NCBI GenBank assembly: GCA_030603385.1
Contig: JAUVXW010000031.1
Coordinates: forward strand, 1-57,595
DNA from: Promethearchaeota archaeon
GTDB taxonomy: Archaea; Asgardarchaeota; Lokiarchaeia; Sigyniarchaeales; SOKP01
Direction: 5' to 3'
DNA: 57,595 bases
Shown: positions 42,957-57,319 of the stretch, in pieces
Position numbering within the stretch: the stretch's first letter is position 1
Layout of the letters: every line of letters begins with the position of its first letter
Program-made: the position numbers and the translations under genes
The notes under the pieces: generated by a model
What the model saw: the letters and a program-made list of their open reading frames with translations, nothing else
Told to the model about the DNA's origin: nothing
Databases searched by the model: none

Positions 42957-44636
42957 ATGTCGATGGAATTAGAAATAAATAAGACAGTGGAATTTGAGGG
43001 TAAGTTGTATGAAGTAAAAACAAAGAAAGGACTTAAAACGCTTAAATTATATAATTTTGGAATAAAAGATATTGCTGATATTAAAGGTCTCGATAATTTA
43101 ACCGATTTGCAAGTATTAAATCTCGCTGGAAACAAAATTGCCGAGATTAAAGGCCTTGAGAACCTTAGGAACTTAGAAAAATTATTACTCTATAGTAATG
43201 AAATTACCGAGATCAAGGGTCTTGAAAATTTGACTAAATTAGAATATTTGACCCTGTGGAAAAATCCAGTCTTTAATGAGACAAAGGATATGTTTGGTGG
43301 AACTGGAGTCAATGACCAGTACAAAGATCCACAAGCTGTGGTAGAGTATTGTCAAAGTGCCCCAGAAAGAGAAGAAAAAGCACGAAAAGAAAGAGAGCAA
43401 AGGGAAAGAGAGATAAGAGAGACAGAGCAACGAGAACGGGAGCGGAGGGATAGGATAGAAGAGGAGAAAAAAGTGAAAATTGAGGCAATTGAATCTATTA
43501 AGAAGTTATCCATAGTATATAAAGAAATAAAAATTGATAAAATTAGTTCAAGAATAGGTTTAGATCTTGAATATATTCTAAATCTAATTGAAGAGATGAT
43601 AATTAATAAAGAGATTAAGGCTGAAATAAATGAAAACATTTTAATTTTTAAGAAATCTACACCTGAATCAAAAGAAGAGATAAAAATATCTCAACCTCCT
43701 AAGGAATTTAATGAGAAAACAATTAAAATATTAAGAGGAGGAGATTGGAAAATTGAAGGTAATCAAAGTGTATTCTATTATAAAGTGAAGGTAGAGAATA
43801 ATTCTCAATTTCTTATTGGAAATATCTAAATTCTTTTAACCTCGATTCCACAAGGTTTAAAGACTCAATCTCAAGTGTATGCAATTGATTTTCTAAAGCC
43901 TGGCTCGTTCGAAAGTCCTACATTTAAGCTAAACGCTACAGAAAGTTGTGTTGGAGACACAGTCGAGGGTTTAGTATCATATACGGATCCTAAGGGTACT
44001 CAACAAACAGTAAATGTTGAACCGTTTAAAATATCTTATGTCTGTAATCTACTTACTCCAAAATTGATAACCAGAGAGGAATTTGAAGAAAAAATAGGAT
44101 TTATGGAAGAAAAAAAATTAATCATTGACAGCAATTTAAATATTACAGATTTAGCGCAAATACTTGAAAATAAAATTAAACAATGTAATTTTGCGCTGCT
44201 TCAACAAATTGAAAATTCTCAGAGAGAAGGCTTTAGGAAAATTGAAGGTTTTGCTCAGGGATTATACGATAAAGAAGATGTGGGTATATCTGTTGCTGTA
44301 AAAAAGATGGAAGAAGGTTCTAAATTAGTTATTAAGGCTATGAGCGACAGAGGTGATAAAATAACTGATTTATTAAAAGATTTTAGCATTAGATTAGACG
44401 ACATCAAGAATGACACAGAGTTAATAAAGGAATATACTTCTCAAATAGAAGAAATATTCGATAAACAAGTTGATCTTGAAGCTTATTTAAAGTCCCATCT
44501 CGGATCAGGGTGGGAAAAGATTAAAGATTCGTGGCAAGATTATAAAACAGGTAAAATTGACAAAAAAGAATTGATTTACCGTGGAATTAAATCACTGGGA
44601 AGGACTTTCATAAGAAACGTTACTAGATTTATTTAA
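42957..44636 (+). pseudogene. LRR, charged helix, PCI-like and appendage-like domain gene split by one in-frame TAA
   Basis: ORFs 42957-43829 and 43875-44636 are in the same frame. The junction reads ...NSQFLIGNI*ILLTSIPQGLKTQSQVYAID... Confidence 0.75.
43069..43270 (+). repeat. Three 22-aa SDS22-like leucine-rich repeats
   Basis: IADIKGLDNLTDLQVLNLAGNK / IAEIKGLENLRNLEKLLLYSNE / ITEIKGLENLTKLEYLTLWKNP. Confidence 0.9.
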
Positions 44637-44807: not shown

Positions 44808-47216
44808 TTAGACTTGTTTCTTTTCAAAAACTTTAGCCATTGCCTCTAAAAGTTTTCGTAATTTTGTTCTATCCGGTATTTTTTCTAATTGTTCTGAATA
44901 TATCGGATAAACGTTATATAAAATACTTAATAATTCAATCCAAGATTTCTGAGTTTCTGTTTTATCAGGAATTTGTTTTTTTAATTGGAATAAAATTCTT
45001 TTTTCTTTTTTTACTTTAAGATTTCTGAGGAACGTTTTAGTAACTAAAATTCGAAATTTGGCATATTCATCAGGTCTGAAATTAACTAATGTATAATTTA
45101 AATTATCATCAGCAAAAGGCAGAATTCTGATTCTTTTATCTTCAGGCTCATCTGGGTTATCAACTAAAGAGATTTCAATATTATTTTTATCAAAATCTTC
45201 TAAAATAGGATATAATTCTCCCGGTGTTATTCTTGTAGCTGATTCAATTTCATTCGAAATTTCAGATATAGGGATATAAAATACAGGAATTTTTCCTGGA
45301 TTTTCTAATCTGTAAGTATATTCTTTTTTGATTATTTGTATAATTTGGTTTTTCAAATTCTCTGTAAGCTGCTCAGAAGTAAAAGAAATTTCTGCCTTTT
45401 TTCGTTTTTCCTCATGCATTTCTTTATCTTTTTGTTTTTTGCTAAAATCAGATGTAAGTGATGATATAAAACTATTTGTGGTCTTCCCAGCTTCAGCATT
45501 CGTGGTTAACCTGCTAGTTTTTCTTTCTTTCTCCAAAGCTGTTTCTAAAAGTCTCTCACTTAGATATCTTCTTGCCTTTTGCTTAGCAACTCCTTTTTTC
45601 TCAAAACGTTCAGTGACGGATACGAAATCGATCATTTTAATTGGTTTTCCTAAATCCTGTTTTTCTTCTGTAATTAAAATATCCATATCCTTTCTTGCTA
45701 ATTGTTCAAGAAGGGCATGGACATTTCCCTTTGATAATTGAGTAACTTTAATTAATTCCCGCTCAATTATTTCGATTGGGTAAGCTTTACCCCTCCTTAT
45801 ATATTCACTTCTAATAATTTTGTAAATTCTTTCTATACTTTGTTCTTCTTCACTCACCGTCTCTTTTTGTAATCTCATGAACATAGATGTTTTATGAGGT
45901 TTTAAATAATAAATTAATATTGTACTCCCTAAGAAAAAAATCATTAGAACTGAAATTATGTATTTATCAGCCATTAATACAATGCCAATATTAGTTAGCG
46001 TTTGGTTATTTACTTGACTTGCTAGTGAGAAACGAGTTAAAGTTTGAGCAAATACGCAAGCTAAACACAGCAGAATTAAGCCATCCTTTTTAAAGAAAAG
46101 TATACGCCACCCTATTGTTTGCCCAGTTTTTCTGATAATTCGAAATAAGAAATACATAGAAATTACAAATTCGAATATATATATGTATGATGCTGGTGAA
46201 CCTATTGCCCCAATTGTTGCCTTGAAAGCTGTAACAGTATCTTCTTGAAGAAGCATATATATACTAATTTGTAAAATCTGAAAGAAAAAGATAAACAACA
46301 CAATTAAAGAGAACGTGAAGTTATCAAATGTACCAGCTCTTTTAGTTTCAGCTCGTCTTCTAGTAAGCACAAATTCAAAAATAATAAAGACCAGTGTCAT
46401 TACTAAACTGAAGTAAATTAATGGCATGATTACACGCATTTGGAAATTATAAACTTTAACTGCACTTGTAGGATCAACTTTTCCAAAAAAATCTAAAGAT
46501 AAAAACACTAAAAAACTCCTATAGAATAATGAAATTACAATAAGCACACCTAAAATAATAAATGGAATGATTATAGCGAATATATACCTTGGAATTGAAT
46601 ATTTCTTAATGAATCTTGCTTCTATTTTTGTTGAAAATTTCCTTGAATACATATAAAAGCGGCTACTCAATAGAAGTAGCCAAATCATTGCTAAAGTTAA
46701 TAAATATGTCATAAAATTAAGATCTGTTGAAATATATAAAAATAACAGATACAATACTGCAATTAGACTACAAAATAATATCAATTGCTTAATTGCAGTT
46801 TTCTCTTCAAAAATAAAGATTCTTACTTTATCTACACTAAATAGAAAAGACAACACCAGAAAAAATGCAACAATTGTATTTGAAAAAACGAAAGGGTTTC
46901 CAAGCATTAATAAATTAATCCAAGTACTTCCTGGAATGTTAATAGCAGTAATTAATAGTAGTGAATATACTACAAATATCCCATATAGACCATAAAATTT
47001 TCGCTGGAAAGAATATGACTTTGGTTCTTTACCATCTATATAGACTTCTTGATGAATTATCTTATCAGAATAAAAAGCTGATAATTGACTTTTTACTTTT
47101 GACGTGAAACTTGTCAATTTAATATTCTGTTTTGAGGTGAAGCCCTTAACTTTTTGTTTAACCCCACTTTTATCAGGTTTTGACTTTTTTGAAGAATCTG
47201 ATTGCTTATTAGACAT
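44808..47216 (-). CDS. Large polytopic membrane protein with a long soluble C-terminal region
   Basis: About 10 hydrophobic segments followed by about 360 aa of soluble sequence. Confidence 0.75.
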   Translation of the reverse strand: MSNKQSDSSKKSKPDKSGVKQKVKGFTSKQNIKLTSFTSKVKSQLSAFYSDKIIHQEVYIDGKEPKSYSFQRKFYGLYGIFVVYSLLLITAINIPGSTWINLLMLGNPFVFSNTIVAFFLVLSFLFSVDKVRIFIFEEKTAIKQLILFCSLIAVLYLLFLYISTDLNFMTYLLTLAMIWLLLLSSRFYMYSRKFSTKIEARFIKKYSIPRYIFAIIIPFIILGVLIVISLFYRSFLVFLSLDFFGKVDPTSAVKVYNFQMRVIMPLIYFSLVMTLVFIIFEFVLTRRRAETKRAGTFDNFTFSLIVLFIFFFQILQISIYMLLQEDTVTAFKATIGAIGSPASYIYIFEFVISMYFLFRIIRKTGQTIGWRILFFKKDGLILLCLACVFAQTLTRFSLASQVNNQTLTNIGIVLMADKYIISVLMIFFLGSTILIYYLKPHKTSMFMRLQKETVSEEEQSIERIYKIIRSEYIRRGKAYPIEIIERELIKVTQLSKGNVHALLEQLARKDMDILITEEKQDLGKPIKMIDFVSVTERFEKKGVAKQKARRYLSERLLETALEKERKTSRLTTNAEAGKTTNSFISSLTSDFSKKQKDKEMHEEKRKKAEISFTSEQLTENLKNQIIQIIKKEYTYRLENPGKIPVFYIPISEISNEIESATRITPGELYPILEDFDKNNIEISLVDNPDEPEDKRIRILPFADDNLNYTLVNFRPDEYAKFRILVTKTFLRNLKVKKEKRILFQLKKQIPDKTETQKSWIELLSILYNVYPIYSEQLEKIPDRTKLRKLLEAMAKVFEKKQV

Positions 47217-47856: not shown

Positions 47857-48135
47857 ATGAAAAAGATTCAAGTAGAAAATAGAGAAAGCCTGATAAATCT
47901 CGTAAAAAAGGGAATTGAGCTACTTTGCGAGAAAAATATTTCAAGTGTTGTAATATTATCTTCTTATAAGATCAACTCTGTTCTCCGCGATAACTATGGT
48001 GTAGATATCAAAGTTGATAGAATAGGCCGGATTTTAGGTCGGGTTGCTAAATTAAATCAATTAAAAAGATTAAATACGAATATTCCAAAATATAAATTAC
48101 ATATTTCAAAAGTCTCGAGTTTACAATTCTTCTAA
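47857..48135 (+). CDS. Small basic, probably winged-helix, protein
   Basis: SSYKINSVLRDNYGVDIKVDRIGRILGRVAK. Confidence 0.65.
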   Translation: MKKIQVENRESLINLVKKGIELLCEKNISSVVILSSYKINSVLRDNYGVDIKVDRIGRILGRVAKLNQLKRLNTNIPKYKLHISKVSSLQFF

Positions 48136-48143
48136 TAATAAAT

Positions 48144-49511
48144 TTAAGTTATATTGCGGAAATCCGTTATTGTTTTTTGGAGTTTTTCAAATAAAATTTT
48201 TATTTCTGAATAACTTTCTTTGATTGGTTTTAATTCTAAATCTATTTCTTCAAATTTGGCATCAATTTGTGTTTTAAATAGCGCTGTAACTTTTTCTATG
48301 TGTTCGCTTATATTTTTTGTAAGATTTTTTATTTCAGCACCCTTATCTGAAGCTAGGTTATTTAATTCCATTATCAAACTTGACATTTGAGAGTTTAAAT
48401 TTGAAGTTCTTTCTAATGTATTTAACACATTCTGAATTTTTTCTTCCAATGGAGTAATAACACTTTTAATATGATCATCAATTTTTATTTTTGATTCTTC
48501 GATTGTTCCATTTAGAATCTGTGAAATTTCATTTTTTAATTCTCTTTGACCATCAACACGTCTATCAATATATTCAGCTACATTCTTCTTAAAAAGTCCA
48601 GAAATTTCTTCAAACGTGCTATTAAAGAATTTCTGTACCTCTCTTAGACCATCTGAAACAGAATTTTTTAATTGGTTTAAGGATCTACTAATATGTTCCA
48701 TCCCTTTTAGAGCTCCTTGAGTCACCTCACCAATCCATGTATTAACCTGCGTTTCATAAGTTCCTCCAATTGCTTCACTTAATTTAGCCAATCCATTACT
48801 AAAGCCAGATATTACCTGATCAACCTGTCCTGAATAATCTTTAACACTTTCTTCTATCAAATCTTCAGCTGAAAGAGGTATTTCTTGAAGTTCTCTTAAA
48901 GGTTGTTCCTTTAATTCTTTAATTATAACGGGAGATAATCTTTGTGAGTCTTCTACAAATTTTTGTACCCATTTAAAGAAATTTAGGTTTGCAGGTATCT
49001 CAATTTCATATGAGACTTCAAGGTAATCATTTGATTTTTTATGTTCTTTTAATGTATAAATTTTAAAGCCAAACCCTTTATCTTTACCCATGAGTGTATG
49101 ATCAAAAATTACAACAAATCCTTTAGGATTTTTCTCTGTTTGGAGAAATTTATGGTTTTGAATTGTAATTTCAGTAAAATCCAGACCCCATCCTGGTCGG
49201 GAAATATACCATCCTACTATCTTCATGTCCTTTTCTTGGTATTGCTTATCTAATTCAACAAATAATTCAATGTCTTCTTTATTAAAACCAGTTGATATAT
49301 GAATTCCGTGTTGTATTGGAATAACACTAATTAAATTGATCACTTGATTTATCTCATCTATTTCACCAATACAAACGCCCATTACTTCTACACTTTCATC
49401 TAATGCTTCATTCCCAAATCTTAACACATGAGTTATCATTCGAATCAATGCATCTGCTTTAATTTTAACTTTAAACCCACCAGTTTCGTGTTTCTTATCT
49501 AGCGATGACAA
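48144..49511 (-). CDS. MPN- (JAMM-degenerate) domain with long helical C-terminus
   Basis: EVMGVCIG; VGWYISRPGWG lacks both histidines of HSH. Confidence 0.85.
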   Translation of the reverse strand: MSSLDKKHETGGFKVKIKADALIRMITHVLRFGNEALDESVEVMGVCIGEIDEINQVINLISVIPIQHGIHISTGFNKEDIELFVELDKQYQEKDMKIVGWYISRPGWGLDFTEITIQNHKFLQTEKNPKGFVVIFDHTLMGKDKGFGFKIYTLKEHKKSNDYLEVSYEIEIPANLNFFKWVQKFVEDSQRLSPVIIKELKEQPLRELQEIPLSAEDLIEESVKDYSGQVDQVISGFSNGLAKLSEAIGGTYETQVNTWIGEVTQGALKGMEHISRSLNQLKNSVSDGLREVQKFFNSTFEEISGLFKKNVAEYIDRRVDGQRELKNEISQILNGTIEESKIKIDDHIKSVITPLEEKIQNVLNTLERTSNLNSQMSSLIMELNNLASDKGAEIKNLTKNISEHIEKVTALFKTQIDAKFEEIDLELKPIKESYSEIKILFEKLQKTITDFRNIT

Positions 49512-49517
49512 CTTTCC

Positions 49518-51008
49518 TTACTCGCCCCCTTTTTCTAGTTTTTTTATTTTGTCTAATAACTCTTGATTTTCAGACCTAAGATCCTTTACTCTCTTTTGTA
49601 AATCTTTATTTTCAGTTTGTAATGTTTTTAATTTATTTTTGATTGGATTCTTAGAACTTTCTAATAATATAATCGCTGCCTTTAAATCAGATAAATAACT
49701 TTTTTTCTCTTTATTTAGATTATTAAGATTACCCTTAATCCTACTTACCTTTTTATTAAAAGATGTCAATAAATCTTCTTGTACTGTGTTTAAATTGCTT
49801 TGGATTAGATTATCTATAGATTTATATCTTTCTGTATATTTTTTAATGGCATTGCTTCCTCTTTCTAGATTTTCAACATTATTTGAGAAATTTTTATTAA
49901 ACTCCGTTAGACTATTAGATATCCTTGTATTTTCTTCTAAAAGCTGATTAAGCGCATTATCTTTAAATGATAGATCAATTTGATTTTTATAGTCCTCTTT
50001 CGAATTATTAACTAACTCTTTGATGTTCTCCTTTTCATTATCTAATTCTTCAAGTTTATCATCAACATAGAAATCTATATCTTTTAAATCATTCTGCAAA
50101 TCATAGTTGAAAGATTGTTGTAAATTAATAATTTCATTACTCAATTTATCTCTTATTTCTTTTAAATCGTTCCTCATCCCTGAGTTATTTATATATATCT
50201 TATTGACAATATCTTGTCCCCATGTATTAAGTAAATAAGTCATTGGTTTAATGGTTAATTCTAGAAAATTATCCATCCCTTTTTTTAAAGTTGAAATTAT
50301 TTCCTCAAAATTTATTTCAGGCAATTTCGATTCTATTTGTTCTTCTTCAGGGATAAAAACCTCGCTAAACAAGTCAACTGTTTCATTTAGTTCAAGAATT
50401 TGAGGGCTTCCCGTATGAACAGCATTTATTAATTCCATTATCTTTATATAAAATTCATGACTATTAGGAGGTTCGACAATAGCCTTTACTTCATGGTAAT
50501 CTGATTTTAAAGCTAATGAAGGGTCATCTAGATTTGTTTCATCTAATCTAAAAACTCTAAAACCTAAATCTCCTGGTTTATCAAGATATGTATGGTCAAA
50601 AACAATTCCTATACCGGTAGGGTTCTTCTGCCAAAAAATTTGGTTGAATTTATCAGTTCCACTGAAGAAGATACCGAGTCCTGGATGGCTATGCATCCAT
50701 CCCACCGAAAACCATCCAAGATCGCCATATTGCTCCCATATTTTTGTATCTAATTCCCCAAATGCTCCCAACTGTTCAACTGAGAATTTCACTTCTATTG
50801 TGCCTCCATGAGAAACCGGTACTACATCTTCAACTATAACATTTTTAATTTCATCTTCTCCTTCAAGATGACCAATTAGAACGCCCATAACTTCAGATAA
50901 TTTTGAATGTTCTATATATTTTGATCCAAAACGTAAAACATGTAGTAACATTTTATAATAAGCAAGGGGTTTAATCGTTACTATACTTTGATCACTAATT
51001 TTCCCCAT
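49518..51008 (-). CDS. MPN+/JAMM isopeptidase domain with long coiled-coil C-terminus
   Basis: EVMGVLIG; VGWMHSHPGLGIFFSGTD; ATG at 51008 preferred over TTG at 51077. Confidence 0.88.
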   Translation of the reverse strand: MGKISDQSIVTIKPLAYYKMLLHVLRFGSKYIEHSKLSEVMGVLIGHLEGEDEIKNVIVEDVVPVSHGGTIEVKFSVEQLGAFGELDTKIWEQYGDLGWFSVGWMHSHPGLGIFFSGTDKFNQIFWQKNPTGIGIVFDHTYLDKPGDLGFRVFRLDETNLDDPSLALKSDYHEVKAIVEPPNSHEFYIKIMELINAVHTGSPQILELNETVDLFSEVFIPEEEQIESKLPEINFEEIISTLKKGMDNFLELTIKPMTYLLNTWGQDIVNKIYINNSGMRNDLKEIRDKLSNEIINLQQSFNYDLQNDLKDIDFYVDDKLEELDNEKENIKELVNNSKEDYKNQIDLSFKDNALNQLLEENTRISNSLTEFNKNFSNNVENLERGSNAIKKYTERYKSIDNLIQSNLNTVQEDLLTSFNKKVSRIKGNLNNLNKEKKSYLSDLKAAIILLESSKNPIKNKLKTLQTENKDLQKRVKDLRSENQELLDKIKKLEKGGE

Positions 51009-51149
51009 TTTAAATTCACTTGTTTTTTCAAATTTATGATATATATATGGTTTGTATGGTTTTAAATATTTGAACAAAAAGCATTTAATTTAAAAAGGTC
51101 TATTTTTATAATTTACAATTATAATCCAATTAGGTAAATAAGCTAGGAT

Positions 51150-51740
51150 TTAATCATGGGGTAATGGTTTACCGCAATAAGGACAAAATTTCCAATCTAA
51201 ATCCTTGCCACAGTGTGGACAAAAACTTGAAGCTGTTGTACTTGTTGGTGTTCTTTCTGCCATTCCTTGTTTTGGAATGGATGGCAATTGTCTTGATGTC
51301 TTCAATGTTGTGGCTGCTGAAGTACTAGGTTGTCCTCCAGTACCCTCTGTTTTAACCCATCCTTGAACTTGTGGTCTTTTTAATTCACTTTCTGGTACTT
51401 TCTCTAATTCTACTTCCTTAGTTTCTGATAAAGGGGCTACAATTTTCCTTTCTTCTTTCTTTTTAATTGCCTGTTTCACTAAAGCTTGTGTGGTTTTCAT
51501 GACTTGATGAGGATTAATATTAGGAATTGCTACTGTACGTAGAACCCATCCTACGATCAAGTTCTGGTTTGGAAAGCCTCCCTGAACGTCCTCATCCTTA
51601 TAAACATATGAATCAATTACATTTCTTCCTTTTAACAAACGTGAGGCCCATTTATCATTAATCAATCCTAATTGGATTCGATAGCTTGTTCCAGCTACAC
51701 CAAGTTCGCTTGTAAGTGGAATAAAACCTCTTTCTGTCAA
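51150..51740 (-). CDS. Protein with globular N-domain, Thr/Ser/Pro-rich linker and C-terminal double zinc ribbon
   Basis: FCPHCGKDLDWKFCPYCG; GTGA SD before TTG. Confidence 0.8.
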   Translation of the reverse strand: MTERGFIPLTSELGVAGTSYRIQLGLINDKWASRLLKGRNVIDSYVYKDEDVQGGFPNQNLIVGWVLRTVAIPNINPHQVMKTTQALVKQAIKKKEERKIVAPLSETKEVELEKVPESELKRPQVQGWVKTEGTGGQPSTSAATTLKTSRQLPSIPKQGMAERTPTSTTASSFCPHCGKDLDWKFCPYCGKPLPHD

Positions 51741-52000
51741 GGTAAATCACTTTTTATATTATAATTATTTGAATCAAGTAATATTATAATGGTAAATTTT
51801 GAATTTAAATTATTATTTATTTCATGGTAAAATTTATTTCTAATATTAAAAATTTTATGGAATAGGCTAAGTTAGAGTGCATCAAATCATCCATCTTTCT
51901 TTGTGCAATGAAAAAGACATAAATACAAAAATTTGTATTAATTTGTAAAAAGTTATTAAAAAATTATTTAATTTTAAAGAAAAGAACACTGGTTGAAAAA

Positions 52001-52957
52001 ATGACAGTAATAATCCCTACAAAGGTTTATTTAACTATCGTGGCTGCTGCTGTAAGATTTGCAAATGCACGTATACCAAAAGATGATTGGCTTGAAGTAA
52101 GTGGTATATTTACAGGTCGAAATGAAGGGGATAATGTTATCATATCAGCTGTTTACCCGATTATGCATCAAAAGTTAGATAAGGATGCAGTGATTGATCA
52201 GTACAAATGGTCAGATGAAGACTATGAGTCTCTTTATATAATTGACGATGAAGCCTTTTCAAGGGATCCTCCTGAATTTGTAGTTGGCTGGTGGCACTCA
52301 CATCCTGGATTTAAGGTTATGATGTCACATATCGATATTCGTACAACGTTATCTTATCAACAAAATAATCCATTAGCGATTTCTCTTGTATTTAACCCTC
52401 AGCGATTAATACGCCAAATCGAAGTTGCTGATAAAAGGGGCGATCCAGATAAACAATTGAAAAATGATCCTGGGTTTAAGATCTTCAGATTAGATGACGT
52501 AAACAGTGGGATAGAAGCCTCTTATCATTCTGCCGATTATAGAGTTGAAGGATACGAAAGCATGGAACAATTAATTAGTTTGACACAAAAATTCATTGTA
52601 GACGTAACAAATTTGTTCCCTAAAGAAAGATTACCACAAACTTATGAAAAAATAATTGATGATAAAATAGAACAATTGAATTCATTGCTATTAGGAACTG
52701 AAGAATATTTAGCAACTTTAACTCGACGTGGGGAAACTCAGCGTATTCCTGAGGTTTTAGAAAATCAAAATCAAGAGATAAACAGATTTGTGGAAGAAAC
52801 AAATAAAAGAATAGGTTTTATCAAACATTTCAAAGAATTCTTAGAATTCAAGGAAAGAGAAACAATAATCCCCCAAATAGAAAAATCAATATCCAAGTGG
52901 GATGGAGTTGTGGCTGGTTTGAGTAAAAAATTGAAAGAACTATCTAAAAAGTTTTAG
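52001..52957 (+). CDS. MPN+/JAMM domain with helical C-terminus
   Basis: EVSGIFTG; VGWWHSHPGFKVMMSHID. Confidence 0.88.
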   Translation: MTVIIPTKVYLTIVAAAVRFANARIPKDDWLEVSGIFTGRNEGDNVIISAVYPIMHQKLDKDAVIDQYKWSDEDYESLYIIDDEAFSRDPPEFVVGWWHSHPGFKVMMSHIDIRTTLSYQQNNPLAISLVFNPQRLIRQIEVADKRGDPDKQLKNDPGFKIFRLDDVNSGIEASYHSADYRVEGYESMEQLISLTQKFIVDVTNLFPKERLPQTYEKIIDDKIEQLNSLLLGTEEYLATLTRRGETQRIPEVLENQNQEINRFVEETNKRIGFIKHFKEFLEFKERETIIPQIEKSISKWDGVVAGLSKKLKELSKKF

Positions 52958-53094: not shown

Positions 53095-55299
53095 ATGAAA
53101 AGAATTAATTTTCCGTTTACAGCAATACTTGGGCAAGATAAAATGAAGATGGCATTGGTGTTGAATGTTATAGATGCTCAAATAGCGGGAGTTCTTCTTA
53201 CAGGCCATCAAGGTACAGGAAAGAGCACTGCTGTTCGAAGTCTCGTAGAATTGATGCCTCAAATCGAAGTTATTAAAGGTTGTGAATTTTCATGTGCCCC
53301 ATATTCAGATGTTGACGATTTATGTGAAAGTTGTAAAGAAAAAATGGAAAAGAAAGAAGCCAAAACTGAATTTAGGGATATGTGGTTAGTAAATCTGCCC
53401 TTGGGCGTTACAGAGGATATGGTATGTGGCTCATTATCCATTGATAAAGTACTTACGGAAGGAATAAGAGCATTACATCCAGGATTATTAGCAAAAGCAA
53501 ACCGAGGTATTTTATATGTAGATGAAATTAATCTACTACAGGATCACATTGTTGATGTTCTTTTAGATTCTGCTGCTTCTGGTGTTAATATAATAGAAAG
53601 AGAGGGTATTTCTGTGTCTCACCCATCTAGATTCGTTCTCGTAGGAAGTATGAATCCTGAAGAAGGTGATTTGAGACCGCAAATAGCAGACAGGCTTGGT
53701 TTAGAGGTTAGGATCAGAGCTCCGAGAGATAACGAATTGCGAGCTGAAATCACCAGAAGAGTTATTAGTTTTGGCGATAACCCAAAAAATTTCATTGAAA
53801 ATTATGAAGATCAACAAGATAAATTAAGGCAAAAAATCCTAAATGCCCGTAAAATATTAAAGGAAGTTCAAATCCCGAATTCTGTTTATGAATTTGTATC
53901 TAAAATAGTAAGCGAATTAGAAATCTTCTCACAAAGAGCAGATATTACCTTTATTAGATGCGCCAGAGCTCATGCCGCTCTAAATGCAAGGAAAGACATT
54001 GTGGAAGAAGATTTAAACGTGGCGATGGACTTGGTATTTGAACATAGAATTCAATCACTTCATTATGAAATGACACCCGAAGAGATAAAATCTAAGATTG
54101 CTGAAGTTTACGGAAAAATAAAGGAAGCTTATGAAAATACTAATGTACTACAACCCAACAGAGAAACAGAAGGACCTTTAAAGCATGATGATTCTTCCCA
54201 AAAGGAGTTCAAACGTCAATCTGTTGATCCAGATAAAGTGGATATACCAGAAACGAGAGAGCAGAAGCTTCCCCCTCCAAAATATCCGGACAATAAAAAG
54301 AGAAGTCCTAAACCTGCTGGAGGTTGGAAGGTAAAAAATATTCCTTTTGATGATGATCTCAGATTTTTTAAAGCTAAAAATACGTCACTGCCATTCATTT
54401 ATCAAATGGAAAAAAAAATGACATCAATTCTAGATAATATTAGAAAAGATCGAAAGATTTCTGATTATGGTGGTAGAGGAATAGGAAGAAGAATTAAAAT
54501 CTCTTCCTCTCAAAAGGGTAGATATGTATCATACAGAACACCCATAAGCGAGAACCCGAAAAGAATTGCTTTAGATGCTACAATTAGAAATTATCTTAAA
54601 AACATAGCATATAACGAGACTGATATAGAATTTCCAATACATTTTAATAAGTATGATTTAATGGATAAAATTTATGAATATCGTGCTCCTTTAGCTCTAT
54701 TTTTTGTACTTGATAGTTCAGCATCAATGTATTATGTAATTAAACAAATGACCGATGTAATATTATCTTTACACCGAGAAGGTTTTAGAAAAAGAGATAA
54801 AATTGCTTTAATTATATTTCGAGGTAAACAAGCCTTAGTTCTTCAAAAACCAACTGTCAATTTTAAGATGGCAGTTAATAAATTGAAAAAAATCGAGGGA
54901 AAATCATACACCCCAATGGCAGCAGCTCTTAAAAAGGTTTCTGAGCTTATAAAAGTAGAAAAATTGAAGGATAGAAACATAATACCAATCGTTTTTATTT
55001 GTAGTGACTGTGGAGCTAACATCTCAGCTAAACATCCTGACTTAATAGCTCAAGTTGAATCTGATTATGTGTTAATTACTCAAGAATTAAAAGAATTAAC
55101 AAAGAAATTATCAAATCTAAAAATACACATGGTGGTTCTAGAGCCAAAAAAGTCTTATGCCACTCAAGCCCTTGGAGTACACACTTATTCTGCTGAAAAG
55201 ATTAAGAAGAACTTCAAAAAATATGCCAATTGCCAACTATACAAATTTAACAAGTATAATCCCAACTCCTTAATACTAGAATTGAAAAAAATACTTTAA
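53095..55299 (+). CDS. ChlD/BchD-like chelatase subunit (AAA+, linker, vWA)
   Basis: FPFTAILGQ, GHQGTGKS, LLAKANRGILYVDEINLL, MNPEEG, MIDAS DSSAS. Confidence 0.9.
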   Translation: MKRINFPFTAILGQDKMKMALVLNVIDAQIAGVLLTGHQGTGKSTAVRSLVELMPQIEVIKGCEFSCAPYSDVDDLCESCKEKMEKKEAKTEFRDMWLVNLPLGVTEDMVCGSLSIDKVLTEGIRALHPGLLAKANRGILYVDEINLLQDHIVDVLLDSAASGVNIIEREGISVSHPSRFVLVGSMNPEEGDLRPQIADRLGLEVRIRAPRDNELRAEITRRVISFGDNPKNFIENYEDQQDKLRQKILNARKILKEVQIPNSVYEFVSKIVSELEIFSQRADITFIRCARAHAALNARKDIVEEDLNVAMDLVFEHRIQSLHYEMTPEEIKSKIAEVYGKIKEAYENTNVLQPNRETEGPLKHDDSSQKEFKRQSVDPDKVDIPETREQKLPPPKYPDNKKRSPKPAGGWKVKNIPFDDDLRFFKAKNTSLPFIYQMEKKMTSILDNIRKDRKISDYGGRGIGRRIKISSSQKGRYVSYRTPISENPKRIALDATIRNYLKNIAYNETDIEFPIHFNKYDLMDKIYEYRAPLALFFVLDSSASMYYVIKQMTDVILSLHREGFRKRDKIALIIFRGKQALVLQKPTVNFKMAVNKLKKIEGKSYTPMAAALKKVSELIKVEKLKDRNIIPIVFICSDCGANISAKHPDLIAQVESDYVLITQELKELTKKLSNLKIHMVVLEPKKSYATQALGVHTYSAEKIKKNFKKYANCQLYKFNKYNPNSLILELKKIL

Positions 55300-55347: not shown

Positions 55348-56604
55348 ATGGAAAATACTACAAAATCTGTCTTAATTGTTGGATTCAACACTCGTCCATT
55401 AGCTTTTTCTTTGAAGAATGCAGGATATGAAGTTTATGCTGTAGATTTTTTCGGTGACTTAGATTTTTATCCAAATGTGAAGGATAGTTTCGTTTTAACA
55501 AAAGAGTTAAGGACTGATTACAATTCAATAAAAGACAAATATAGCCAGTTATTGTCAGATTTTACAATAAAATTATTGAAAAAATATCCTAGAATTAATT
55601 ATTTAATGATTGGGAGCGGATTAGATGATGCTTATATAGAACGAGAAGCCATTTCAAACGAAATAAAGGATAAGAATTACAAGATAAAGGAGTTGAATAA
55701 TGATATTGAAACACTCAAAATGGCTCGTAATATTGATTATGTTTATAAGATTTTAAAGTTGCACAAGTTTAAGGTTCCTTTTACTATTCCTTACGAAAAT
55801 TTAAAGGCTTATAAAAATAATCTTCAATTTCCAATTATTTTTAAAAAATCTAAAAGTGCTGGTGGATTGAATGTTTTCAAAATTCAAAACCATGAAGAAT
55901 TATTATCTAAAAGTAAAATTTTGGAAGGTAAAGAGTTTAATCCCCTAGAATGGGTGATTCAAGAGTATATAGAGGGCATTCCTATAAGCTGTACAACAAT
56001 TTCAAATGGTATAAAATGTGAAGTTATTTCAATCAATCGTCAAATTATTGGAGAACAATTTTTAAATGCTCCTAAAGAATTCATATATTGCGGTAATATC
56101 GTACCTGCGGGTTTGCCAAAAAAGGATGAACAAATTATATCAAGGATTTCAAAAATCCTAACAATCGAATTAGAGTTAAAAGGTATTAATGGATTTGATT
56201 ATGTTTTAAAAGACCATTATCCATATTTAATGGAGGTTAATCCAAGAATCCCTGGTTCGATAAGAGCATCTGAAATGAGTTTTGATTTAAACCTTCTAGA
56301 TTTACATATAAAAAGTTTTGATTTGGATAAATGGTATGTCATTAAAAAATTAATAAGTTCTAAGAAATTAAGTGGGTTTTCAACAAAATTAATAGTGTTT
56401 GCCCCCAAGGAAATAAAAAAAAATGTTATTTCTGAGGTAAACAATCTTGAATATATTCATGATAAAAGTGAGCCAAATAAAAGTATCTTGAAAGGTGAAC
56501 CGTTATGTACTGTTTTATATAAAGGAAGAAATTTATCAAAATCTTATAGTATGGCGATGGAAATTGTGAATAAAATTAACCAGATCATTGAAGGATTGCC
56601 TTGA
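55348..56604 (+). CDS. ATP-grasp ligase (archaeal type)
   Basis: VDFFGDLD, SAGGLNV, QEYIEG, YCGNIVP, GINGFD, EVNPR. Confidence 0.85.
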   Translation: MENTTKSVLIVGFNTRPLAFSLKNAGYEVYAVDFFGDLDFYPNVKDSFVLTKELRTDYNSIKDKYSQLLSDFTIKLLKKYPRINYLMIGSGLDDAYIEREAISNEIKDKNYKIKELNNDIETLKMARNIDYVYKILKLHKFKVPFTIPYENLKAYKNNLQFPIIFKKSKSAGGLNVFKIQNHEELLSKSKILEGKEFNPLEWVIQEYIEGIPISCTTISNGIKCEVISINRQIIGEQFLNAPKEFIYCGNIVPAGLPKKDEQIISRISKILTIELELKGINGFDYVLKDHYPYLMEVNPRIPGSIRASEMSFDLNLLDLHIKSFDLDKWYVIKKLISSKKLSGFSTKLIVFAPKEIKKNVISEVNNLEYIHDKSEPNKSILKGEPLCTVLYKGRNLSKSYSMAMEIVNKINQIIEGLP

Positions 56605-57319
56605 TCTTAGCAATGTAACCTCCCAGTTTTCTTTCGTCTGATTCGGGGACAGCAAGTGCTAGAATTCGATTCTCGTCTAAATCATGAATAATAACAGACC
56701 CATTTTCTCCCCCAATTATAGAATATTCCATACCACCTTCTAATAACACACCTGATAAATTATATAAAGCCGCAATCATAGCTGAAAGAATTGGTTCAGG
56801 CATAGTTGATTGAATTTTTATAGGTAATCCATCTTTGGTTATAATTCCAATCATTAGTGCCGATGGAATTGCTCTTTTAATAGCAACAAAAATTTCTTCT
56901 TTTTTGAGCTCTGATGTTTCAACAAACGCTGAAATTTTTAAGGCAAATTGTTTCATCTTGGAGACATACTGATTTAATCCTTCCAATTCTGCTAATTCAC
57001 GATTTAAATATGAGACCATTGTTATATTTTCGGTCATAACGGCAAGTATGATTTTCTTTTTACCAGTCACTAAATTGTATGAGATTTCTTGCATTAAAGA
57101 ATCATTCAATATTTTTGAAGATATAAATAGTAGACTAGAGGCTGCAGCAGAAATCTCAGGTAAAGATAAAATTGTATTTTGTTTAAAACTATTTGCAATG
57201 AATGTTCCTCCGTGAGTTCCAATATTAATACCTAAAATTGCAGAATTTTCATTTATTTCCTTTTCAATAAGCTTAATGATATCATTTTCTAATGCTTTCA
57301 TTTTATTTGATTTGCTCAT
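56585..57319 (-). CDS. Tandem Roadblock/LC7 domain protein
   Basis: Two units: ILGINIGTHGGTFIAN...EISAAASSL and GIITKDGLPI...ILSAMIAAL...IIGGENGSVII. Confidence 0.8.
   Translation of the reverse strand: MSKSNKMKALENDIIKLIEKEINENSAILGINIGTHGGTFIANSFKQNTILSLPEISAAASSLLFISSKILNDSLMQEISYNLVTGKKKIILAVMTENITMVSYLNRELAELEGLNQYVSKMKQFALKISAFVETSELKKEEIFVAIKRAIPSALMIGIITKDGLPIKIQSTMPEPILSAMIAALYNLSGVLLEGGMEYSIIGGENGSVIIHDLDENRILALAVPESDERKLGGYIAKIKAILQ

Follow-up and report, generated by a model that had tools for sequence, protein, structure and literature searches.

The proteasome lid, the COP9 signalosome, eIF3, and BRISC all have as their catalytic core a pair of MPN-domain proteins, one of them active (MPN+) and the other inactive (MPN-). 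In eukaryotes, the BRCA1-A and BRISC complexes are built around BRCC36-Abraxas and BRCC36-KIAA0157 (ABRO1). In the literature, no paper on an archaeal MPN+/MPN- pair was found. The archaeal enzyme CsRpn11, from Caldiarchaeum subterraneum, crystallises as a homodimer through H1 and H4 (PMC6043591). Here, we describe two adjacent long-tailed MPN genes, designated A and B, on a 57,595-nucleotide stretch of DNA from a Promethearchaeota archaeon of the class Lokiarchaeia (GenBank assembly GCA_030603385.1, contig JAUVXW010000031.1), which is hereafter called the window. We read A and B as tandem duplicates that probably form a heterodimeric JAMM enzyme, with A catalytic and B non-catalytic, likely acting on ubiquitin conjugates and evolved independently of the eukaryotic pairs; we put the probability of this reading at about 0.6.

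Judged by analogy, the closest functional counterpart of A-B would be BRCC36-Abraxas/KIAA0157, followed by Rpn11-Rpn8 and CSN5-CSN6. BRCC36-Abraxas likewise couples an MPN+ enzyme to a paralogue-like MPN- partner, its C-terminal helices pair beside the MPN-MPN contact, and a PCI scaffold is unnecessary; BRCC36 is, moreover, among the best solved matches of A and B, as well as of C, the third MPN gene of the locus. Unlike BRCC36-Abraxas, A-B appears to be of independent origin, with B a recent sister of A; its tails are far longer (250-290 amino acids), and the partner's site is still intact in some lineages. Rpn11-Rpn8 and CSN5-CSN6 are also active/inactive MPN pairs, and Rpn11 and CSN5 are top matches in the PDB; however, A-B has no conserved PCI partner and was found in a single order of Lokiarchaeia. 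Like A, CsRpn11 and the Asgard Rpn11-like deubiquitinases encoded in operons are archaeal JAMM enzymes of the eukaryote type, but whereas CsRpn11 is small, homodimeric, and located within a ubiquitin operon, A-B lies outside such an operon and has long stalks and a dead partner.

An earlier sequence-only reading of this DNA had singled out the pair together with a zinc-ribbon gene and gene C, and all four genes were verified where it had placed them. The pair comprises the following features:

49518..51008, minus strand: gene A, MPN+ (JAMM), 496 amino acids, with an MPN domain at about residues 1-205 and a helical tail of about 290 amino acids (PF01398 match)
50652..50693, minus strand: JAMM zinc-site motif of A, HSHPGLGIFFSGTD, residues 106-119 (from the translation; columns invariant in alignment A1)
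48144..49511, minus strand: gene B, MPN- paralogue of A, 455 amino acids, with a helical tail of about 250 amino acids (PF01398 match; BLASTP to A, E 5e-34)
49164..49205, minus strand: decayed JAMM motif of B, ISRPGWGLDFTEIT, residues 103-116 (from aligned columns)

Against the Pfam JAB profile (PF01398, cut-off 22.5 bits), A, B, and C score 36.1, 42.2, and 53.9 bits, respectively, all above the cut-off. None reaches the cut-off of 25 bits for Prok-JAB (PF14464), where A scores 20.4 bits, C scores 19.8 bits, and B has no match. By these profile scores, all three are members of the eukaryote-type JAB family and not prokaryotic JAB proteins. Their best solved relatives are CSN5, Rpn11, BRCC36, and archaeal CsRpn11; the best PDB matches of A are CsRpn11, Rpn11, BRCC36, and CSN5, with CsRpn11 at the top of its profile search (3e-13).

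In A, the catalytic set E ... HxH-x7-S-x2-D is complete, comprising E39 (codon 50892-50894), H106, H108, S116, and D119, which bears out the intact motif first noticed from the letters. All five residues are kept in each of the 22 A rows of the tree described below, and HxHx7SxxD occurs in 119 of the 120 best A matches, the sole exception being a 385-amino-acid partial record. The reading frame of A is open up to a TTG at 51077, and the 496-amino-acid orthologues start at the ATG at 51008. B starts with a TTG located 6 nucleotides past the TAA stop of A, and a G-rich, Shine-Dalgarno-like stretch lies within the end of A. The two proteins align over their full length, tails included, at 25% identity and share the segments HVLRFG, EVMGV, and (I/V)FDHT. 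At the site itself, B carries the substitutions His to Ile, His to Arg, Ser to Thr, and Asp to Thr, and only the Glu of EVMG is retained; lacking the complete catalytic set, B is MPN-. Both tails are amphipathic helices, with hydrophobic periods of 3.5-3.7 residues, well over shuffled controls. The sequence-only reading had called B a clear paralogue of A with a degraded motif and had given both proteins helical tails, and it was right in each respect, with tail lengths here of about 290 (A) and 250 (B) amino acids. A reaches about 40 residues past the end of B and terminates in a conserved Leu zipper. As a side observation, residues 441-496 of A (window 49521-49688, minus strand) are the best-conserved part of its tail, with heptad leucines at L470, L477, and L484; from its sequence, this zipper may link two heterodimers or dock another partner.

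B is under purifying selection and is not a pseudogene: in comparisons with three congeners, the ratio of non-synonymous to synonymous substitution rates (dN/dS) is 0.14-0.22 for B and 0.13-0.14 for A. Conservation in B is highest at helix 1, at what used to be the active-site loop, and at the post-core helix. The idea that B is a redundant duplicate decaying toward loss is thus scarcely credible. Its catalytic residues are indeed gone in many lineages, and in differing ways; however, full-length frames persist in all 134 genomes of the window's GTDB family, the dN/dS values are low, and the replacement motif SRPGWGLDFT is strongly conserved within the MPN- clade.

The range of the pair was examined with B as the query against 400 Asgard genomes. 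Full-length matches were found throughout the window's family (134/134). Two sister families of the order contributed four genomes with E values of 1e-37 to 1e-43, the other matches in these families being weaker, and values of 1e-15 to 1e-23 were obtained for the order's one remaining family and elsewhere in the class. Among the genomes of other Asgard classes in this set, no full-length B orthologue was found, just MPN-domain-level matches at 1e-6 to 1e-14. Synteny was compared in twelve related loci (nine of the window's family, three of sister families), every one of which has the A-B pair. The neighbouring 802- and 92-amino-acid genes described below occur in nine of nine family loci, the former in one sister-family locus as well, whereas the zinc-ribbon gene is found in 7/12 loci (with an extra fragment in L012) and C in 6/12. 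In public records, the locus tags of A and B are consecutive. Such recurrence, seen for the pair and its neighbours across all the related genomes examined, is more than chance, and the linkage for which the sequence-only reading had proposed a synteny check is conserved, with a range of one Lokiarchaeia order. A search with the MPN domain of A against 1.84 billion cluster representatives returned only 486 relatives at E<=0.001; because many of these span 440-750 amino acids, long-tailed MPN proteins appear to be a small, mostly Asgard group. Tandem A/B homologues that are both MPN+ are found in sister families of the same order. One sister-family genome (L008:1447-5671, plus strand) has four tandem MPN genes, the short ones (203 and 246 amino acids) lying directly upstream of an A-like/B-like long-tailed pair in which both members are MPN+.

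The relationship between the two genes was examined by IQ-TREE analysis of 62 MPN regions, without eukaryotic sequences (supports are given as ultrafast bootstrap/Shimodaira-Hasegawa-like approximate likelihood ratio test). A and B form a clade (98/97) that excludes the genome's four other MPN paralogues, C-F. Within it, A is a clade (99/88), B groups with the second genes of the sister-family pairs (99/97), and B of the window's own family is a clade (100/94). C forms a separate clade (100/99), with all five catalytic residues kept in its 7/7 rows. Of the MPN phylogeny proposed in the sequence-only reading, the grouping of A with B to the exclusion of C-F thus came out well supported, in a tree built without the eukaryotic families. 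By their sequences, A and B are sister genes that arose by tandem duplication within one Lokiarchaeia order.

The active site of B has a varied history. Among 116 full-length B representatives, 15 retain all five residues, 13 retain two or three, and 88 retain the Glu alone. The second genes of two sister-family pairs have an intact JAMM site, and so does B in several branches of the family, among them two complete genomes (L001 and L002) from the same GTDB genus. Elsewhere, the motif takes the forms xSHPGWGLYFSxx(E/A/S), YSNPEGGL, ISHVDNGL, and RTSLQEQ; the window type, xSRPGWGLDFTxIT, is fully dead. Because basal and several crown-group B genes are still intact, the dead state arose inside the window's family, and B is, on the evidence of these sequences, ancestrally active (MPN+). 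The maximum-likelihood tree requires at least four state changes for the B site, and on three further branches a different single residue was lost (Ser to Thr, Glu to Gln, and His to Arg), which makes these separate events by residue. Read from the alignment and tree, repeated damage to the B site is certain. A bolder view, which we hold tentatively and at rather less than even odds, is that Lokiarchaeia independently invented an obligate enzyme/pseudo-enzyme deubiquitinase, in which the live member would depend on the dead one for its folding, positioning, or activation, as BRCC36 depends on KIAA0157, and the site of the dead partner would have been discarded repeatedly in separate lineages.

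The same observations bear on the suggestion, made from the sequence alone, that the pair could be a prototype of the eukaryotic JAMM heterodimers. Taken as a statement of descent, with A-B the direct evolutionary forerunner of Rpn11/Rpn8, CSN5/CSN6, or BRCC36/Abraxas, this now seems very improbable. The architecture matches (an active and a dead MPN protein with C-terminal helices), the host is an Asgard archaeon, and A, B, and C are of the eukaryote type and fall under the prokaryotic cut-off. Nevertheless, A and B are each other's sisters (98/97), full-length orthologues occur in one order alone, with the matches in other Asgard classes at the weak level given above, and the intact B of sister families and several crown lineages implies that the MPN- state is young. 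Profile searches point the same way. Among the 60 best PDB chains retrieved with the B profile (E <=0.004), the eukaryotic chains are all MPN+ (Rpn11, CSN5, and BRCC36), and none of the 60 is Rpn8, CSN6, eIF3f, or Abraxas. The 150 best relatives of the A MPN domain all match at 1e-12 or better, and no eukaryotic sequence was identifiable among the relatives listed at that level; the best eukaryotic PDB match stands at 1.5e-6, in a far smaller library. B was found as the sister of A rather than grouped by descent with eukaryotic MPN- subunits, in the tree without eukaryotic sequences. The likeness to the eukaryotic pairs therefore suggests parallel evolution, given the sister relationship of A and B, the single order, the ancestrally active B, and the profile ranking.

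Whether A and B could bind each other was addressed with one complex prediction of the full-length proteins, each with its own alignment, and three controls. The A-B model reached an interface score (interaction prediction score from aligned errors, ipSAE) of 0.63 (runs 0.58, 0.64, and 0.63) versus 0.00 for the best of the three controls; in calibration, 58 of 80 solved complexes attained this mark, as did 2 of 110 mismatched pairs. The runs had at least 43% of their contacts in common, and the partner's predicted local distance difference test (pLDDT) score was at least 63. Confident MPN contacts join residues 14-32 and 178-203 of A with 19-37 and 170-196 of B, segments that correspond in both proteins to helix 1 and the post-core helix, and the tails are in register, with A 271-374 contacting B 270-376. 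The predicted interface residues of B are conserved above the rest of its MPN region (0.74 vs 0.64). A helix-1/post-core-helix interface has been described for CsRpn11 and for Rpn8-Rpn11 (PMC6043591), and the predicted A-B interface is of this type. Of the modelling of all pairings of the four proteins put forward earlier, the A-B pairing was modelled, and it gave a predicted MPN-MPN interface. The enzyme/pseudo-enzyme core proposed in the sequence-only reading thus stands, given an MPN+ A, an MPN- B, the 6-nucleotide linkage, purifying selection, and an ipSAE of 0.63; an A-B heterodimer is a reasonable reading as far as models and evolution can support it.

Under this reading, A and B would be translated together, across the 6-nucleotide spacer with its Shine-Dalgarno-like stretch, and would assemble as a parallel heterodimer, packed through helix alpha-1 and the post-core helix from either side, with the first 100-150 or so tail residues of both running side by side, in register. 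A would provide the sole zinc isopeptidase site through E39, H106, H108, S116, and D119. B would be a non-catalytic scaffold or activator, its own site having become dispensable and decayed in the window's lineage as well as elsewhere. The enzyme would likely act on conjugates of the ubiquitin that this genome encodes, made by a ubiquitin-E1-E2 operon on another contig, and the stalk and the C-terminal Leu zipper of A probably tether or oligomerise the enzyme. The deubiquitinase activity, the substrate, and the role of the stalk are what we infer from these comparisons.

Several points weigh against this picture of an independently evolved heterodimeric deubiquitinase. Zinc binding, isopeptidase activity, and the substrate of A are predictions, and an MPN+ gene (F) is already present in the ubiquitin operon, which means that A could have another substrate. 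Independence from the eukaryotic pairs is argued from distribution, ancestral state, profile ranking, and a tree without eukaryotic sequences. Forcing all strongly decayed B genes into one clade lowers the log-likelihood by 22.6, with a p value of 0.050 in the approximately unbiased test; given this borderline result, and a grouping chosen once the tree had been viewed, the count of independent complete losses is uncertain. Furthermore, because MPN-MPN heterodimers are already in the PDB, the ipSAE may reflect resemblance to known complexes. The complex test also gives a positive result for near paralogues of a genuine partner, and A-A or B-B homodimers would be compatible with it.

This last point leads to an alternative in which A and B are separate homodimeric coiled-coil proteins and B has a non-catalytic job of its own, such as binding a ubiquitin-like (Ubl) tag or a structural role. 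We consider it unlikely, although it deserves attention: the CsRpn11 crystal is a homodimer formed through the equivalent helices (PMC6043591), and in the 15 of 116 representatives in which B is a complete JAMM enzyme, it could act alone. However, the 6-nucleotide spacing (an overlap in relatives) and invariable adjacency suggest coupled synthesis, the tails are collinear with a predicted in-register pairing, and the predicted interface helices are the best-conserved segments of B.

A second alternative accepts the heterodimer and changes the substrate, to another Ubl (SAMP, Urm1, or ThiS-like) or a peptide, with possible action alongside the membrane/winged-helix neighbour. The dedicated MPN+ gene of the ubiquitin operon, the seven JAB-family genes of the genome, and the linkage of the 802-amino-acid membrane protein to the pair even in a sister family would fit such an enzyme. 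Conversely, every one of the nearest relatives of known structure is an isopeptidase for ubiquitin or Nedd8, and a Pfam scan of the window found no Ubl gene adjoining the A-B pair. On balance, we regard a non-ubiquitin substrate as distinctly improbable, and we retain ubiquitin conjugates as the likely target of the heterodimer.

The genomic background is an AT-rich window (G+C about 30%) in a parent genome of 3.9 Mb in 58 contigs, and the close protein relatives of the window carry the public labels Promethearchaeota or Lokiarchaeia. The genome's seven PF01398 genes make up an expanded set of eukaryote-type MPN proteins with long tails. Besides A, B, and C, they include:

L003:5948-7549, plus strand: 533-amino-acid MPN+ protein with a helical-repeat tail (PF01398)
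L004:5723-6856, plus strand: 377-amino-acid MPN+ protein with a helical tail (PF01398)
L005:6523-7335, minus strand: gene F, 270-amino-acid MPN+ protein in the canonical ubiquitin-E1-E2 operon, contig 41 (PF01398)
contig 30, around 70754-71050: small, weak JAB-family match

Because the ubiquitin operon, on another contig, has its own MPN+ gene F, we take A, B, and C to be extra paralogues and not the operon's deubiquitinase.

Around the pair, the block runs in the order 802-amino-acid gene, 92-amino-acid gene (opposite strand), B, A, and zinc-ribbon gene, followed by the divergent gene C and an AAA-VWA gene:

44808..47216, minus strand: 802-amino-acid gene, with a polytopic membrane domain (about residues 75-450, about ten helices) and two winged-helix-like domains (from synteny and an AlphaFold2 model)
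47857..48135, plus strand: 92-amino-acid gene convergent on B (64-79% identity, in the same place in ten related loci)
51150..51740, minus strand: zinc-ribbon gene upstream of A, with a conserved N-domain of about 95 amino acids, a variable linker, and a C-terminal CPxCG...CPxCG (Zn_ribbon Pfam match at or just under the cut-off; alignment A5)
52001..52957, plus strand: gene C, MPN+, 318 amino acids, with a short helical tail, divergent from the zinc-ribbon gene, A, and B (PF01398)
52295-52336, plus strand: JAMM motif of C, HSHPGFKVMMSHID, with a complete catalytic set (from the translation)
53095-55299, plus strand: AAA+ (Mg-chelatase-type)-VWA gene, on the flank of C (Pfam)
55348-56604, plus strand: ATP-grasp gene, on the flank of C (Pfam)
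56585-57319, minus strand: Roadblock-like gene, on the flank of C (Pfam)

The 802- and 92-amino-acid genes are better conserved than A and B, and the former remains linked to the pair even in a sister family. Homologues of the 802-amino-acid protein are at least 61% identical to it and have Lokiarchaeial-type source names wherever named; its Atlas cluster holds Promethearchaeota only. Its AlphaFold2 model (pLDDT 58) shows helices and winged-helix elements, and the topology alone is usable. The 92-amino-acid protein has no Pfam match. The zinc-ribbon protein, with a predicted model of pLDDT 48, has an invariant-rich N-domain and two linear motifs, AP.SETK..EL..VPESELKRP..QGWV and KTSR.LPSIP, set apart by the variable linker; by its sequence, it looks like an adaptor.

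Other genes were considered as parts of the system and set aside. The AAA-VWA, ATP-grasp, and Roadblock genes are syntenic in one complete congeneric genome (L002), and the AAA-VWA gene is also present in three more loci. They are nonetheless probably bystanders, since C sits elsewhere in the other complete genome (L001) and no functional tie was found. A leucine-rich repeat (LRR) open reading frame lies at 42957-43829, with a second frame after it in the same phase (region 42957-44636, plus strand), and gives a PCI match of 20.6 bits (cut-off 22). A PCI link was rejected, as this sub-threshold LRR frame is about 4 kb away and an MFS transporter occupies its place in two complete related genomes. 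Among the window and the related loci, the A-B pair has no conserved PCI partner, and no link of the pair to proteasomal ATPases was seen.

The placement of C given in the sequence-only reading, as a third MPN+ gene divergent over a 260-bp gap with the zinc-ribbon gene between, was also confirmed. At E<=1e-30, C is present in 124 of the 134 genomes of the family; for the sister families f2 and f3, the figures are 1/1 and 12/14, or 13 of 15 together. This range resembles that of B and is slightly wider.

In at least 11 sister (congeneric) species, C contains an insert of 30-32 nucleotides exactly between a Phe and a Lys codon (HSHPGF/KVMMSHID, the slash marking the site). The insert loci are L019:6354-6384 and L020-L031 (alignment A4), and the equivalent site in the window, between 52312 and 52313, is uninterrupted. 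The insert contains stop codons and in most cases measures 31 nucleotides, so that the C frame is split in its carriers, where both halves are 67-89% identical to the window C. The insert sequences vary among species, and a hairpin is maintained with compensatory changes. In 11/11 species, GGYU of exon 1 pairs with ARCU at the 3' end of the insert, with a C-G to U-A exchange in two. The junctions fall after the second of three unpaired bases (UY/N and AA/A), framing a 4-bp helix with 3-nucleotide bulges. Overall, 83.9% of cells are paired versus 77.4% in shuffled alignments, two-sided changes occur in 7 pairs versus 2.8, and 0 of 500 shuffles were as good. By sequence and predicted pairing, this layout is a canonical bulge-helix-bulge, and the insert is a candidate tRNA-type intron in a protein-coding mRNA; a split gene, translational bypass, and a shared pseudogene are rival readings.

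As for the pair itself, A-B looks like a parallel invention and not a prototype of the eukaryotic heterodimers, and the finding does not speak directly to how the eukaryotic complexes originated. If the two proteins bind each other, they would provide a prokaryotic case of the active/inactive MPN design reached by a separate duplication; the design would then be one that is easily reached and not a one-off eukaryotic invention. B, which exists in intact, partly decayed, and dead forms, offers material for testing what a pseudo-MPN protein contributes and at what point catalysis can be dispensed with. Should the tentative view of an obligate enzyme/pseudo-enzyme deubiquitinase be true, these lineages would constitute a natural time series for how MPN- subunits of the Rpn8 and CSN6 type could arise.

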